DNA from: a virus
Taxonomy: Duplodnaviria > Heunggongvirae > Uroviricota > Caudoviricetes
Virus record (IMG/VR): IMGVR_UViG_2667527959_000005
DNA length: 4,642 nucleotides
Reading direction: 5' to 3' (one strand)
This document shows, one piece after another, positions 806 to 4,642 of the stretch (position 1 is its first letter; each line of letters begins with the position of its first letter). Under the pieces are notes generated by a model. It was not told where the DNA came from, made no database searches, and worked only from the letters and a program-made list of their open reading frames with translations. The position numbers and the translations under genes were made by a program.

Positions 806-1265
806 TCAACGTAAGGCGTTCCTCGATATGCTGGCGTGGTCAGAGGGAACTGATAACGGACGTCAGAAAACCAGAAATCATGGTTATGACGTCATTGTTG
901 GCGGAGAGCTATTCACTGATTACTCCGATCACCCTCGCAAACTTGTCACGCTAAACCCAAAACTCAAATCAACAGCAGCCGGGCGCTATCAGCTTCTTTC
1001 CCGTTGGTGGGATGCCTATCGTAAGCAACTTGGCCTGAAAGATTTCTCTCCGAAAAGTCAGGACGCTGTGGCATTGCAGCAGATTAAAGAGCGTGGCGCT
1101 TTACCGATGATTGATCGCGGTGATATCCGTCAGGCTATCGATCGTTGCAGCAATATCTGGGCGTCGTTACCTGGTGCAGGTTACGGTCAGTATGAACATA
1201 AAATCGGTGACCTGATTGCCCGATTTAAAAAAGCTGGTGGGGTAGTAAATGAAGCTGAGATATAA
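789..1265 (+). CDS. R: Endolysin, lambda R type lytic transglycosylase
   Basis: 158-aa [42 protein letters not shown]..., which matches lambda R from memory, including the catalytic Glu19 in the WSEGT context. GGAG at 779-782 is a Shine-Dalgarno 6 nt before the ATG. The last ~25 residues diverge from lambda R. Confidence 0.95.
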
Positions 1266-1641
1266 GCTGGTTATCGCTGCATTCTTCTTTACTGTCATCG
1301 GTTCTTTCATCTGGTCTGCCAACCACTACTACAGCAAATATCAGCACGAAAAGAAACGTGCTGATGAGGCTGTACAAAATGCCAAATCGGCAACTGTCAT
1401 TACCAATAACGTCCTGCAATCACTGCAAATCGTCAATACAGTTCTGGAGGCTAACCAGCATGCAAAACAGCAGATCACACTGGAGTCACAGAGAACCGAG
1501 AACGATATCAAGGCTGCTGTTGCGGATGATGATTGTGCTGTTCGTTTTGTGCCTTCTGGCGCAGTTAAGCGGCTGCACGACTACGCGAACGGTCTACGTT
1601 CCAGTTCCGGTGGTTCCGTTACCAGCCAACCTGACGGCTGA
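1249..1641 (+). CDS. Rz: Rz-like inner-membrane spanin subunit (i-spanin), non-lambda type
   Basis: 130-aa ORF whose start overlaps the R stop (ATG 1249, R stop 1263-1265), with GGTGGGG as Shine-Dalgarno. It has an N-terminal signal-anchor (LVIAAFFFTVIGSFIW), then a charged, Q/E/K-rich periplasmic region with a Cys near the C-terminus. It sits at the third position of the lysis cassette and contains an embedded +1 frame lipoprotein ORF. The sequence is unlike lambda Rz. Confidence 0.8.
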   Translation: MKLRYKLVIAAFFFTVIGSFIWSANHYYSKYQHEKKRADEAVQNAKSATVITNNVLQSLQIVNTVLEANQHAKQQITLESQRTENDIKAAVADDDCAVRFVPSGAVKRLHDYANGLRSSSGGSVTSQPDG

Positions 1642-1804
1642 AACACCGCAGCCAGACTTACCCGACCCGTTTACGTGGGGAGCAAGTCTTGACCTGAATG
1701 TCGCATTGCTGTCAGCGCTGGCGCAGTGCAACAGGGATAAGGCTGATATCAGGATTTTCGAGAACAACAGGGCAGGACAAACCGATGGCACGATTAAACG
1801 TTGA
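1526..1804 (+). CDS. Rz1: Rz1-like outer-membrane lipoprotein spanin subunit (o-spanin), overlapped architecture
   Basis: In the +1 frame relative to Rz: MMIVLFVLCLLAQLSGC, with lipobox L-S-G-C and the Cys at residue 17 from ATG 1526. The mature region is proline-rich (VYVPVPVVPLPANLTAETPQPDLPDP) and carries a further Cys (AQCNRD). The ORF starts inside Rz and ends 163 nt after the Rz stop. The start is uncertain: ATG 1526/1529 has no positively charged n-region, while in-frame ATG 1460 (GGAGG 11 nt upstream) would give a long charged n-region. Confidence 0.65.
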   Translation: MMIVLFVLCLLAQLSGCTTTRTVYVPVPVVPLPANLTAETPQPDLPDPFTWGASLDLNVALLSALAQCNRDKADIRIFENNRAGQTDGTIKR

Positions 1805-1970
1805 AGTTATCCCACCAGACAGCGAGGTGCTGAACGGGATTTTTGCAGAGATTGAGCGCAAATATGCGCGTCAGCCGCTGACGCCAAAAGTAATTGATGA
1901 AATGCAACGCGAAGTGGCGCGCCTTGTGCGGCGAATGATAACCACAAAGGTTACGTTCGTCCGGGACTGA
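1785..1970 (+). CDS. Hypothetical small protein (61 aa), function unknown
   Basis: ORF MARLNVEVIPPDSEVLNGIFAEIERKYARQPLTPKVIDEMQREVARLVRRMITTKVTFVRD. AGGA at 1774-1777 is 7 nt upstream of ATG 1785. It is co-oriented with the late operon and overlaps the Rz1 stop by 20 nt. The composition is protein-like (charged, probably helical). No motif I can name. The upstream in-frame ATG 1698 has no credible Shine-Dalgarno. Confidence 0.4.
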   Translation: MARLNVEVIPPDSEVLNGIFAEIERKYARQPLTPKVIDEMQREVARLVRRMITTKVTFVRD

Positions 1971-1977
1971 CATTACA

Positions 1978-2000
1978 GAAGCCCTTCACTGAGGGGCTTC
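1978..2000. repeat. Inverted repeat / RNA hairpin between the small ORF and the HExxH gene
   Basis: GAAGCCCTTC (1978-1987), loop ACT, GAGGGGCTTC (1991-2000): 10-bp stem with one G-U wobble, or a 7-bp perfect stem with a 9-nt loop. There is no downstream U-tract (GATAATGGAG follows), so it is not a canonical intrinsic terminator. Confidence 0.4.
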
Positions 2001-2024
2001 GATAATGGAGCACTGGGATTATTC

Positions 2025-2645
2025 ATGAACAGACCACACCCACCAGCGCATTTTACGATGCCACCTGACCCGAAGCCGTACATCAGCATTATGCCCGCTA
2101 ATGACGTTGGCGAGTGGCTGAATAAGCACATCCTGAGCGATGAGGGTGACCTCTACAACCCTGACCACCAGCATTTGCTTGAAGCGGATCTGTGCTTTCT
2201 CTGGGCGTCGAACGCTTTCGAGAAGAAAGGGCGTTCCGTGCTGGGGCAGGCGGAAGAAGTGGCAATGCGTGCCGGAGGCTGGCAGAAAGCGCGGATGGAG
2301 CAGCAGATGTATGAATGGTTCGGCAGGGTGCCGCAGTTCATCATCACGCTGGCCGCTGATTACTGCTCGCAATGTTCCGATCTGGAATTCTGTGCGCTGA
2401 TAGAGCACGAGCTTTATCACATCTGCCAGGCGACAGATGAATTTGGCGCGCCGAAGTTCACGCAGGAAGGGCAGCCAAAGCTGAAGCTGCGCGGCCATGA
2501 CGTGGAAGAGTTTGTGGGCGTGGTTCGCCGTTACGGTGCGAGCCGGGACGTGCAGGAAATGATTGATGCGGCGAATCAGCCAGCGGAGGTTGCTCATCTC
2601 GATATTGCCAGAGCGTGCGGGACGTGCATGCTGCGACTGGCTTAA
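2025..2645 (+). CDS. HExxH-motif protein, putative zinc metallopeptidase-like phage protein of unknown function
   Basis: 206-aa ORF co-oriented with the late operon. HELYH at residues 128-132 (nt 2406-2420) is preceded by CSQC (residues 114-117) and a further Cys at 123, with CGTC near the C-terminus (residues 198-201). The N-terminus is proline-rich (MNRPHPPAHFTMPPDPKP). Only weak Shine-Dalgarno candidates (GGGA 2015-2018, GGAG 2007-2010). Family assignment is from motifs only. Confidence 0.7.
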   Translation: MNRPHPPAHFTMPPDPKPYISIMPANDVGEWLNKHILSDEGDLYNPDHQHLLEADLCFLWASNAFEKKGRSVLGQAEEVAMRAGGWQKARMEQQMYEWFGRVPQFIITLAADYCSQCSDLEFCALIEHELYHICQATDEFGAPKFTQEGQPKLKLRGHDVEEFVGVVRRYGASRDVQEMIDAANQPAEVAHLDIARACGTCMLRLA

Positions 2646-2676
2646 ATACTGGACTGTATAAGACGAATGGTGATTT

Positions 2677-3150
2677 ATGGCTGCATTAAAACCTGATGTG
2701 AAAGCCTTCATCATTCAGTCGCTTGCGTGCTATGACACGCCATCGCAGGTGGTCGAGGCTGTCCAAAAAGAATTCGGGATCAAGATCACCCGCCAGCAGG
2801 CTGAATCTCACGACCCCACGAAGGCCAGCGGTAAGACGCTCGCCAAAAAGTGGATCGAGATGTTCCACGCGACGCGCGAACGGTTCCTGACCGAAACCAG
2901 CGACATTCCGATCGCGAACAAATCCTATCGCCTCCGCGTGCTTGACCGCATGGCAACCAAAACCGAGGGGATGAAAAACTTCTCCCTGACGGCGCAGCTG
3001 ATTGAACAGGCCGCGAAAGAGGTTGGCGACGCTTACACCAATAAGCTGAAGGTTGAAAGCACTGGCAAGGATGGCGGCCCGATCAAGACCGAGACGACCA
3101 ACCTCACCGCAGATCAGGCCGCAGAGATTTACCGCAAGATGATGGGGTGA
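2677..3150 (+). CDS. Terminase small subunit (TerS), P22/Sf6-like headful type
   Basis: 157-aa ORF immediately upstream of the large terminase (stop 3148-3150, TerL ATG 3153), with GGTGA Shine-Dalgarno before ATG 2677. The C-terminal segment [17 protein letters not shown] resembles the conserved GKDGG-x-I-x-x-ET tail of Sf6/P22-family small terminases as I recall them. The N-terminal region is plausibly a helix-turn-helix DNA-binding domain. Confidence 0.8.
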
Positions 3151-3152
3151 TC

Positions 3153-4642
3153 ATGCCTCTCCCGTTTGAATTCGATTTCAGAAACCCTGATTACCAGATG
3201 GTTTTTGAATGGCGGATGGAGCGCTTACAGCGCATTCGCCAGAACCCTGAAATGCTGCCAGCGCTAAAGCAGTTTTACCGCACCAACCCGGCACAGTTCA
3301 TCATCGACTGGGGTATGACTACTGACCCGCGTAACATCGATTATGGCCTGCCGGTCACCATCCCTTTTCTGCTGTTCCCGAAACAGGAAGAGTGGATTCA
3401 CTGGATCATGGAGCGGCGCGAACGACTGGAGAACGGCATCACCGAAAAGAGCCGCGAAATGGGGCTCAGCTGGACGGCGATCGGGCTGGCCTGTTCGCTC
3501 TGCCTCTTCAACAAAGAAATGGTTATCGGTTTCGGCTCCCGTAAAGAGGAATACGTCGACAGCACCGGTGACCCGAAGGCGCTGTTCTGGAAGGCGCGCA
3601 AGTTCGTGGAAACGCTGCCCGTCGAGTTTCGCGGTTCGTGGGACGAGAAGAAGCACGCGCCGTACATGCGCGTTGAGTTTCCCGATACTGGCGCGGTTAT
3701 CAAAGGCGAGGCTGGCGACAATATCGGACGTGGTGACCGTACCACGCTCTACCTGGTGGATGAAGCTGCATTCCTCCAGCGTCCTCTGTTGATTGATGCG
3801 GCGCTGTCGCAAACCACCCGTTGCCGTATTGACCTGAGCTCGGTTAATGGCATGGCGAACCCGTTCGCGCAGAAGCGCCACGGCGGAAAGATACCAGTAT
3901 TCACGTTCCACTGGCGGGATGACCCGCGCAAGGATGAAGAGTGGTATCGCAGGGAATGCGAGAAAATCGACAATCCGGTGGTGGTGGCGCAGGAACTTGA
4001 CCTGAACTACAGCGCATCTGCGGAAGGCGTCCTGATCCCGTCCGACTGGGTACAGGCTGCCGTCGACGCGCATATCAAACTTGGTATTCAGCCAACGGGC
4101 AAGCGACTTGGCGCGATGGACGTCGCCGACGAAGGCCGGGACAAAAATGCCTTTTCGACCCGTCACGGCTTCCTTCTGGAGAACGTGCGTGAATGGTCCG
4201 GCGTGGGCAGCGACATTTACCAGTCCGTTGAGAAGGTCTTCGGCTTTTGCGAACAGGACAACCTCGAAGAGTTTCGCTTCGACGAGGACGGCCTGGGTGC
4301 TGGCGTTCGCGGCGATGCGCGCGCCATCAACGAACTGCGTAACGCTGCGCGCCGACCGTCAATACTCGCCACACCGTTTCGTGGTAGCGGCGCGGTATTT
4401 GATCCGGACGATGAAGCGGTGCGCGGGGACAACGGACAGGCCGCACGCCTGAACAAGGACTTCTTCGCCAACGCCAAGGCCCAGAGCTGGTGGTGGCTAC
4501 GCAAGCTTTTCCAGAACACCTATCGCGCCGTGGTTGAGGGCATGGCCTACAATCCGGACGAAATCATCTCAATCAGCAGCGCTATGGCGAGCAAAGACAA
4601 ACTCATCATCGAGCTGTCGCAGCCGACCTACTCCATTAACGG
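3153..4642 (+). CDS. Terminase large subunit (TerL), N-terminal ~496 codons; 3' end beyond window
   Basis: Open frame from ATG 3153 to the window end with no stop, which is why it is missing from the ORF track. Deviant Walker A KSREMGLS (residues 99-106, nt 3447-3470) and Walker B LYLVDE (nt 3747-3764). The downstream region ([14 protein letters not shown] ... [10 protein letters not shown] ... [17 protein letters not shown]) is recognisably similar to the nuclease domain of Sf6/P22-type large terminases. Translationally coupled to the upstream TerS. Confidence 0.95.

Follow-up and report, generated by a model that had tools for sequence, protein, structure and literature searches.

Two separate genes between the lysis and terminase genes of a tailed phage: a lysis-side ORF and a PhageMetallopep (PF18894) gene beside a DUF2280 small terminase

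The 4,642-nucleotide stretch of DNA analysed here (the window; Caudoviricetes, IMG/VR record IMGVR_UViG_2667527959_000005) encodes two co-oriented proteins of 61 and 206 amino acids between its spanin and terminase genes. The initial annotation read them as a two-gene cargo module in the moron slot of lambdoid phages, possibly related to defence. The locus thus raises the questions of whether the two genes belong together, whether each is part of the lysis or of the packaging block, and what the longer protein, which harbors an HExxH motif, may do.

Layout of the interval and the joint between its blocks

Both ORFs are real genes with ATG starts, and the HExxH motif of the longer product is indeed present, as HELYH (Table 1). 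Their placement in a variable slot between the spanin and packaging genes also holds up. In related E. coli prophages, this slot is occupied by the 61-aa ORF (ORF61), by a KilA-N gene and a hypothetical gene, by a GIY-YIG remnant and a gene encoding a spike-fibre domain, or by a 79-aa hypothetical gene. The prophage is not P22-like. Its virion module encodes baseplate proteins and a DUF3383 protein, presumably of the tail-sheath type, which makes it a contractile-tail module; its kin is Pectobacterium phage ZF40, and it follows an early and lysis region of lambdoid type. A search for repeats across positions 1700-3300 returned short chance-level matches only, with no obvious pac-like array.

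Table 1. Features between the spanin and terminase genes, in window coordinates
Feature	Coordinates	Strand	Remarks
Rz spanin gene	1249-1641		overlapped by the LysC/Rz1-type o-spanin frame
LysC/Rz1-type o-spanin	1460..1804	+	PF23793 LysC, E 6e-18; RefSeq lysC coordinates; last lysis gene
ORF61	1785..1970	+	ATG start; 61 aa; PHROG 12811
Conserved stem-loop, mosaic joint	1971..2007	+	5-bp outer and 10-bp inner stem; no U-tract
PhageMetallopep (PF18894) gene	2025..2645	+	ATG start; 206 aa; zincin-like putative zinc hydrolase
HELYH codons of the PhageMetallopep gene	2406-2420		residues 128-132
Invariant H158 codon of the PhageMetallopep gene	2496-2498
DUF2280 protein, putative small terminase (TerS)	2677..3150	+	PF10045, 168 bits; directly upstream of TerL
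Large terminase (TerL)	3153..4642	+	N-terminal 496 codons; runs off the window (full gene 1,623 nt in RefSeq); RefSeq 'TerL protein'

The two genes are separated by a stem-loop with a folding energy of -21.3 kcal/mol (z -3.8), for which Rfam holds no family. The element is found in 401 E. coli genomes, and 97.4% of the cells in its alignment are paired, with compensatory change at three pairs; slid controls reach 36-52%. Homology breakpoints fall exactly at positions 1971 and 2007. On these sequence comparisons, the stem-loop marks a recombination (mosaic) joint between a lysis/ORF61 block and a packaging block, and it has this place between modules in hundreds of prophages of E. coli. The third-position GC content (GC3) is 0.43-0.50 in the lysis genes and 0.53 in ORF61, as compared with 0.67 in the PhageMetallopep gene, 0.72 in TerS, and 0.71 in TerL.

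A two-gene cargo (moron) module, e.g., a toxin-antitoxin, immunity, or defence pair, would agree with the adjacency and shared orientation of the two genes, here and in 17 E. coli genomes, and neither product has a demonstrated function. However, ORF61 is present in 157 and the HExxH gene in 52 of the 5,426 complete E. coli genomes searched, and those 17 are all that carry both out of 198 with either. ORF61 likewise accompanies only 4 of 80 IMG/VR loci that harbor the HExxH gene, and it adjoins Terminase_2 and Terminase_3 modules that lack any PF18894 gene. The recombination joint between the two genes and their difference in GC3 also speak against a unit. As a co-inherited module, the pair is already refuted, and a cargo pair of any kind has become very improbable. 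Since the two genes do not travel together, a complex of their products is not expected.

ORF61 belongs with the 3' end of lysis cassettes, on the lysis side of the joint. It begins inside the o-spanin gene and shares the final 20 nt of that gene, no promoter-like site of its own was seen upstream, and the stem-loop that follows it lacks a U-tract; its GC3 is close to that of the lysis genes. Elsewhere, ORF61 follows LysC/Rz1 or a 142-aa gene and precedes unrelated terminase types. Its distribution in E. coli is sporadic, with other genes filling the slot in its place. The homologues form 37 clusters of constant length, and 29 aligned members (56-64 aa) are 61-95% identical, with dN/dS values of 0.21-0.31 in the more divergent comparisons. 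The AlphaFold2 model (pLDDT 94.6) has the topology β-α-α-β. A ribbon-helix-helix fold (an N-terminal strand and two helices) was considered and rejected: hhalign against Arc and CopG, with approximate reference sequences, gave no support, and the model adds a fourth element, a C-terminal strand that pairs with the N-terminal one. The product of ORF61 would be a small folded protein of the cytoplasm that is independent of the 206-aa protein. Its gene would be coupled in translation to the last lysis gene and passed on together with the cassette, possibly as an accessory to lysis or as a small moron.

The 206-aa protein and the PF18894 family

The initial annotation had placed neither gene in a characterised family. 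This still applies to ORF61, which is uncharacterised beyond its PHROG, and no longer to the 206-aa protein, which matches PF18894 (PhageMetallopep) with 148.2 bits and an E-value of 1.8e-43 (Pfam cut-off 23.7). The match runs from residue 30 to 184 and takes in positions 2-134 of the 134 in the profile, and it is the sole Pfam match of the protein. It also matches PHROG 513 (E 1.5e-97), and its RefSeq name is 'putative metallopeptidase'. Its homologues form 3,501 clusters, most members of which have the same length. NCBIfam gave nothing informative for ORF61 or the 206-aa protein, and neither the 206-aa protein nor the DUF2280 protein nor the ORF61 profile had a meaningful match among PDB chain sequences.

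Across 86 relatives, H128, E129, H132, and H158 are invariant. H48/H50 and C198 are nearly so, and C201 is kept in the closer relatives. The motif H128-E-L-Y-H132 is the metal-binding and catalytic motif of the family, and the predicted fold is of the family's zincin type. The model (pLDDT 93.9) contains a zincin core that is nearest to minigluzincins and SprT/Spartan. A Foldseek search of the PDB with this model yielded no significant match, while BFVD returned further members of PF18894 and, weakly, SprT-like proteins of viruses, and nothing else. On the basis of the model and the conserved residues, the protein is probably a zincin-fold, zinc-dependent hydrolase with an intact HExxH…H site. 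Literature searches found no experiment or paper on the PF18894 family, and whatever is said here about its catalysis, its substrate, or a part in packaging is therefore inference.

Long-form relatives carry an N-terminal helix-turn-helix (HTH) domain, with best E-values of 6.5e-5 for HTH_8, 5e-5 for HTH_Tnp_1, and 1.7e-4 for MerR. One such gene, which encodes both HTH and zincin (locus L124), is followed by DUF2280 and then TerL. Homology between the HTH of the long-form relatives and the DUF2280 domain found no support (hhalign probability 0.8%). Of two scans for distant family members, one found none and the other only four loci.

The weak match to HTH_Tnp_1 is one of two points in favor of a transposase, the other being the label itself, which is attached to PHROG 513 and to the records of ZF40 (gp39), phiPSA1, and VBM1. 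The 206-aa protein, however, has neither an HTH nor a transposase catalytic domain, its only Pfam match is PF18894, and its predicted fold is that of a zincin. The paper on ZF40 gives no experimental basis for the name and itself regards a role of the gene in lysogeny as unlikely (PMC3391216). A transposase identity is effectively refuted by domain content and fold and retains practically no chance of being correct. The propagated annotation in PHROG 513 and in several GenBank records can be corrected on this ground.

Association with the DUF2280 small terminase

The 206-aa gene is not cargo of the variable slot, contrary to what was first proposed. The mosaic joint leaves it with the packaging genes, it has a terminase-like GC3, and belongs to a catalogued family whose members are followed on the same strand by a DUF2280 gene in 117 of 123 loci, a sample skewed in that 80 of the 123 are >71% identical to the query. 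The distance is ≤100 bp in 109 loci, and the median gap is 32 bp. In three of the six loci without a downstream DUF2280 gene, the sequence simply ends. The three distant members at L100, L102, and L103 (about 35% identity) have no DUF2280 gene detectable downstream.

The two families are also matched in number. Their cluster counts are 3,501 for PF18894 and 3,570 for DUF2280, and the counts by host genus in a phage database are 62/62 for Acinetobacter, 44/44 for Pseudomonas, 8/8 for Vibrio, and 7/7 for Burkholderia. Phages of Gamma-, Beta-, and Alphaproteobacteria carry the pair, and at least three types of TerL follow it; prophage hosts include E. coli, Klebsiella, Acinetobacter baumannii, Pseudomonas aeruginosa, Burkholderia, and Vibrio. 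Lambdoid morons are sporadic, have their own promoter and terminator, and are of odd composition. The 206-aa gene does not show these traits, and no promoter-like site was seen upstream of it. It behaves as a part of the packaging module and not as a moron. The initial annotation had allowed for a conserved core gene with a defined role: a conserved near-core gene of the packaging module it is, and a defined role did not emerge. Nor did the suggested link to defence, as ORF61 had zero matches to the PADLOC defence models and the 206-aa protein only a spurious one of 12 bits.

The assignment of the DUF2280 protein as TerS draws on its position and its tail. In comparison with the prophages of BL21 and E2348/69, the segment 2008-3060, i.e., the PhageMetallopep gene plus the N-terminal DUF2280 domain, is swapped as one cassette, and the C-terminal tail of TerS and TerL are retained. 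The C-terminal 39 residues of the DUF2280 protein are 64% identical to the C-terminus of the Terminase_2-family TerS of the BL21 prophage, which pairs with a TerL that is 97% identical to that of the window. In the Acinetobacter phage vB_AbaS_Gln, the DUF2280 protein is labelled 'terminase small subunit'. With a gene directly upstream of terL and a shared, putatively TerL-interacting tail, the DUF2280 protein has the features of a putative DNA-binding TerS, and the sequence comparison supports DUF2280 as its putative DNA-recognition domain.

A different explanation is that the protein is a fixed late counter-defence or host-takeover protease that cleaves a host protein, for instance one of a restriction or abortive-infection system (cf. 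the ArdC metalloprotease domain), and that it would sit beside terS only as the first position of the late/packaging operon. Against this stand the lack of patchy presence, with a ratio to DUF2280 of about 1:1 that extends over three classes of Proteobacteria and no fewer than three types of TerL, as well as the core-gene GC3 and the PADLOC result. Moreover, the protein diverges much as TerS does, with metallopeptidase/TerS identities of 71/73, 60/60, 47/50, and 54/61%. A counter-defence role is accordingly considered unlikely.

The association with DUF2280 has its limits. In 181 Salinibacter phage records, a DUF2280 TerS (33% identity) is preceded by a membrane protein gene and occurs without a PF18894 gene; thus, the DUF2280 TerS family is able to work without PF18894. 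The upstream Salinibacter gene was compared with PF18894 as a candidate divergent member and rejected. In E. coli CFS3246, a 72%-identical metallopeptidase occurs alongside a 99%-identical TerS, so allele-specific matching of the two is not required, and this mix counts weakly against a tight physical complex. The synteny could alternatively reflect just co-transcription and the placement of recombination joints.

Possible roles and comparison with known systems

Overall, the reading preferred here, which is tentative and given slightly less than an even chance, is that the PF18894 protein is the upstream partner of the DUF2280 TerS within the packaging module, with ORF61 as a separate lysis-linked gene and the stem-loop joining the two blocks. 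The best guess at function is a DNA-associated zinc hydrolase that works with or on the DUF2280 small terminase. PhageMetallopep would be made from the late transcript along with TerS and TerL and, as a DNA-associated metalloprotease, would act at the DNA-recognition step of headful packaging. Its target may be the HTH-type TerS encoded next to it, which it would process or turn over in the manner of ImmA with ImmR and IrrE with DdrO. Alternatively, it may clear the site where packaging starts of DNA-bound protein, like SprT, Spartan, and Wss1.

A stronger version, which is possible but doubtful, holds that PhageMetallopep is an unrecognised third component of a widespread system of headful packaging, a DNA-targeted zincin, with an HTH of its own in some lineages, needed with the DUF2280 TerS to start packaging. 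For this, it would activate or recycle TerS by proteolysis or free the pac region of protein. If so, it would correspond, as a protease, to the HNH accessory factors that serve cos terminases. Another reading is a metal-dependent nucleic-acid hydrolase in place of a protease, namely, a YbeY-like zincin-fold nuclease or DNA-processing factor that helps to make or prepare the first pac cut, in a role like that of HNH proteins for some cos terminases; this is regarded as improbable.

Since the PhageMetallopep gene is a typical representative of a family already catalogued, the window holds no new kind of system. The tie between a putative zinc hydrolase and one small-terminase family across phages of three proteobacterial classes is nonetheless a useful comparative lead. 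Should PhageMetallopep take part in packaging, it would represent a new class of terminase accessory enzyme, and such a role could also matter to generalized transduction by temperate phages of this kind.

Within PF18894/PHROG 513, nothing sets the 206-aa protein apart: its match is full-length and high-scoring, it has the HExxH motif, and its length is the usual one. It differs from SprT, Spartan, and Wss1 (e.g., PDB 6mdx and 5xbn) in that it has no significant match to PF10263. The SprT-like profile does not match it at E-values up to 1 and matches five of the 86 relatives, at best with E 0.012. The HExxHx(5)H pattern is also absent, as no third histidine occurs 5-6 residues after HExxH. The HELYH motif is followed by HELYHICQATDEF, with no histidine within 25 residues, and the invariant H158 lies 26 residues downstream. 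Extra N- and C-terminal elements, including H48/H50 and C198, are a further difference. The only pointers to a putative DNA-dependent protease activity are indirect, namely, the HTH fused to the zincin in long-form relatives and the location beside TerS. The minigluzincins (projannalysin, 4jix; proabylysin, 4jiu; selecase, 4qhf) share only 10-15% identity with the protein, and they are archaeal, stand-alone, and about 100 aa in length, in contrast to a phage-encoded protein twice as long.

ImmA/ImmR and IrrE/DdrO each comprise a COG2856/M78 zincin that adjoins its HTH-protein substrate. Similarly, the PF18894 gene adjoins one that encodes a small DNA-binding protein of the HTH type, and the two would be co-transcribed; in some members, zincin and HTH are fused in one chain. 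The partner, however, is a small terminase instead of a repressor, and the 206-aa protein does not match Peptidase_M78 (PF06114) at E-values up to 0.1.

HNH endonucleases of the HK97 gp74 type partner cos-type terminases. Like these, PhageMetallopep is a small putative metal-dependent enzyme whose gene lies beside terS/terL and is conserved in the packaging module. The two differ in fold and motif, i.e., zincin with HExxH versus ββα-Me with HNH. In contrast to the cos-type HNH phages, PF18894 phages harbor SPP1/Mu-F-type head-morphogenesis genes, which are typical of headful packagers.

Layout of the late region

The window represents the late region of a lambdoid prophage and is matched over its full length, with 96.6% identity, by a prophage in E. 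coli MMC-J-0020. Citrobacter phage Omnitron is 98.9% identical over the interval with both ORFs (1785-2645). The ORFs of 61 and 206 codons between the lysis cassette and the terminase genes are present exactly as the initial annotation described them, as is the HExxH motif of the larger product. A lambda-style late control region occupies positions 92-191, just 3′ of the end of the Q gene.

Features of the late region and their positions in the window
Feature	Position	Remarks
Q antiterminator gene, end	~49	left edge of window
pR′-like promoter	92-120	TTGACT, 17 nt spacer, TAAATT
tR′-like intrinsic terminator	stem 154-182 + T tail	strong
Lambda-family holin	482-805	
GH24 lysozyme	789-1265	
Rz	1249-1641	
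LysC/Rz1-type o-spanin	ends 1804	overlaps Rz
ORF61	1785-1970	
Stem-loop	1971-2007	between both ORFs
206-aa ORF (zincin gene)	2025-2645	HELYH = residues 128-132
DUF2280 gene (TerS)	2677-3150	
TerL	3153 onward	

Further downstream, the virion genes of the E. coli relative encode a DUF1073 portal, a DUF3383 protein (taken here to be of the tail-sheath type), a tail tube, and baseplate proteins, among others. The virion module is of the contractile-tail type, like that of Pectobacterium phage ZF40, and not P22-like. In the E. coli BL21 prophage (L010), a truncated DUF1073 gene at the portal position (7063-7821) bears the RefSeq label “anti-CBASS protein Acb1 family protein”. Its full-length homologue is annotated in other strains as a DUF1073 protein only, and the Acb1 label may be an annotation artefact.

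ORF61, the stem-loop, and the variable slot

ORF61 is a real gene, independent of the zincin gene. Its homologues form only 37 clusters, and all sources that name an organism are Enterobacterales (Escherichia, Citrobacter, Enterobacter, and Serratia). Aligned homologues (n = 29) measure 56-64 residues and share 61-95% identity with the window protein, with dN/dS values of 0.21-0.31 for the more divergent pairs. The model is a confident one (pLDDT 94.6) and has the topology β(2-9)-α(13-26)-α(34-51)-β(53-60). Profile searches place ORF61 only in PHROG 12811, a family without known function, and it has no match in Pfam, NCBIfam, PADLOC, or the PDB. The earlier view that neither gene could be assigned to a characterised family holds for ORF61; its neighbor is assigned to a catalogued family.

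ORF61 always lies at the 3′ end of a lysis cassette and overlaps the stop codon of the gene ahead of it, either LysC/Rz1 or a gene encoding 142 aa. The packaging modules behind it are mutually unrelated, harboring either Terminase_2 with a 540-aa TerL, or Terminase_2 or an unassigned gene with Terminase_3. In two metagenome-assembled enterobacterial prophages on ENA contigs (L094 and L095, 3573-4183), an ATGA overlap joins the ORF61 homologue to the 142-aa gene, which precomputed annotations flag as PF28015 “LysA”. This overlap hints at a tie between ORF61 and lysis-cassette accessory genes.

Of 5,426 complete E. coli genomes, 157 have ORF61 and 52 have the zincin gene, with 17 carrying the two side by side; ORF61 is present in only 4 of the 80 IMG/VR loci with the zincin. 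The two genes therefore mostly travel apart, and their independence makes the originally proposed two-gene cargo module, suggested by their adjacency in the window, very improbable. Related E. coli prophages carry other genes at this position: a truncated GIY-YIG nuclease, a “head spike fiber domain” protein, and a 92-aa ORF (L007 3107-4907); a KilA-N protein and an 85-aa hypothetical ORF (L008 3691-4442); or a 79-aa ORF (L009 2978-3217). On the basis of these alternative occupants and the scatter of ORF61, the true variable slot is placed between the spanins and the zincin gene, with ORF61 as one occupant linked to the spanin block. The moron slot claimed between the spanins and the small terminase is thus real as a site of alternative cargo, but it ends ahead of the zincin gene.

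The stem-loop between both ORFs (37 nt, CATTACAGAAGCCCTTCACTGAGGGGCTTCGATAATG; dG -21.3 kcal/mol, z -3.8) is the mosaic joint between the lysis and packaging blocks, and homology breakpoints coincide exactly with both of its edges. It is present in 401 of the 5,426 E. coli genomes, and in some prophages carrying neither ORF it lies upstream of lambda-type (DUF1441) or Terminase_2-type terminases. For 13 distinct variants, pairing holds in 97.4% of cells versus 36-52% in slid controls, and three pairs show compensatory changes. The stem-loop lacks a U-tract, and Rfam contains no family for it. It may act in mRNA processing or stability, or as a recombination linker.

Linkage of the zincin gene to the small terminase

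The 206-aa protein is a typical representative of a known, uncharacterised family. It matches Pfam PF18894, “Putative phage metallopeptidase” (148 bits, E 1.8e-43), and PHROG 513 (E 1.5e-97), and its RefSeq name is “putative metallopeptidase”. Its homologues form ~3,500 clusters at 90% identity, with 899 cluster representatives at 50% identity. PF18894 genes occur in 144 phage-database records (Acinetobacter, Pseudomonas, Klebsiella, Vibrio, Burkholderia, Pectobacterium, Rhizobium, and others). A full-text literature search found no functional study of PF18894; the single paper that names it counts it among accessory genes whose role is unknown.

The zincin gene is part of the packaging module and lies outside the cargo slot. 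PF18894 stands directly ahead of DUF2280, followed by TerL and then the portal, in annotated phages of E. coli, Pectobacterium, Acinetobacter, Pseudomonas, Vibrio, and Rhizobium. DUF2280 lies downstream on the same strand in 117 of 123 collected loci carrying PF18894, a biased sample in which 80 loci are >71% identical to the query and the remaining ~40 span Alpha-, Beta-, and Gammaproteobacteria. The intervening gap is at most 100 bp in 109 of the 117 linked loci (median 32 bp). Of the six exceptions, three are loci whose sequence ends too soon after the gene, and the other three are ~35%-identical outliers. In the phage database, tblastn counts for PF18894 and DUF2280 are almost the same by genus (Acinetobacter 62/62, Pseudomonas 44/44, Vibrio 8/8, Burkholderia 7/7), and a collection of 5.8 billion proteins holds 3,501 and 3,570 clusters, respectively. 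At least three TerL types follow the pair (a 540-aa type without a Pfam match, Terminase_6N/6C, and Terminase_3/3C). The GC3 of the zincin gene (0.67) resembles that of TerS (0.72) and TerL (0.71), while the lysis genes have values of 0.43-0.50. Adjacency to the DUF2280 TerS is near-obligate, and the designation of the HExxH gene as cargo is not sustained.

Salinibacter ruber phages (181 records) have a DUF2280 TerS (33% identity) and no PF18894 gene; a 172-aa multi-pass membrane-like protein takes the place of the zincin ahead of DUF2280 (phage 4_20, L098 3432-4480). Therefore, this TerS family does not need the zincin in all phages. E. coli CFS3246 harbors a 72%-identical zincin alongside a 99%-identical TerS, and thus strict allele matching is unnecessary. 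The 206-aa protein is rather unlikely to be a protease-type accessory factor that the terminase cannot do without.

In the BL21 and E2348/69 prophages, homology to the window stops at 2007 and resumes from 3061, within terS. Between these points, a reverse-strand gene and a Terminase_2-type N-terminal domain replace the zincin gene and the N-terminal DUF2280 domain. The last 39 residues of TerS (64% identity) are retained, as is TerL (97% identity). This mosaic reads as a natural swap of a predicted DNA-recognition domain on a constant, putatively TerL-binding tail. The swap also supports the view that the DUF2280 protein is the small terminase and that its DUF2280 portion is an exchangeable domain for DNA recognition. 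The shared tail lies at 5319-5435 in the BL21 prophage.

Active site and proposed role of the 206-aa protein

Structural modeling assigns the 206-aa protein a zincin fold, each fold match spanning ~85-105 of its 206 residues. In an 86-sequence alignment of PF18894, residues H128, E129, H132, H158, G171, C198, and G199 are invariant, and H48, H50, D159, and E161 are nearly so. The predicted catalytic motif is intact, and conservation of the general-base glutamate favors an active enzyme over a pseudo-enzyme. Two further conserved motifs, DHxH at 47-50 and CGxC at 198-201, offer additional potential metal ligands, with C201 invariant among closer relatives only. H48, H50, C198, and C201 might form a structural zinc site. 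Weak SprT-like Pfam matches occur in 5 of the 86 relatives. The window protein itself has no such match and lacks the third-histidine spacing of SprT; therefore, membership of the SprT family is ruled out.

Approximately one quarter of the listed 50%-identity PF18894 representatives (long forms, P0167-P0307) are 250-330 aa in length and have a conserved N-terminal module of ~45 residues, which weakly matches HTH_8 (best E 6.5e-5), HTH_Tnp_1 (5e-5), and MerR (1.7e-4). On a metagenome contig (L124 592-1395), such an HTH-zincin gene is followed by DUF2280 and a Terminase_6N TerL. No relatedness of the long-form HTH to DUF2280 was detected. This HTH is probably the source of the “transposase” label on PHROG 513 and several phage records. 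For PHROG 513 and ZF40 gp39 the label has no experimental basis (PMC3391216), and a transposase is hardly credible.

The terminase linkage of the zincin gene is a worthwhile experimental lead. We infer, with a little less than even confidence in the general form, that the 206-aa protein is a DNA-associated zinc hydrolase that would cooperate with the small terminase, or act on it, when packaging starts. A fixed counter-defence protease is an unlikely alternative, and a YbeY-like nucleic-acid hydrolase helping the pac cut is less likely still. Two versions of the packaging-initiation role can be drawn from known systems. In ImmA/ImmR and IrrE/DdrO, a zincin processes an adjacent HTH protein, and the 206-aa protein would similarly process TerS. 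Alternatively, it would remove a DNA-bound protein, as SprT does.
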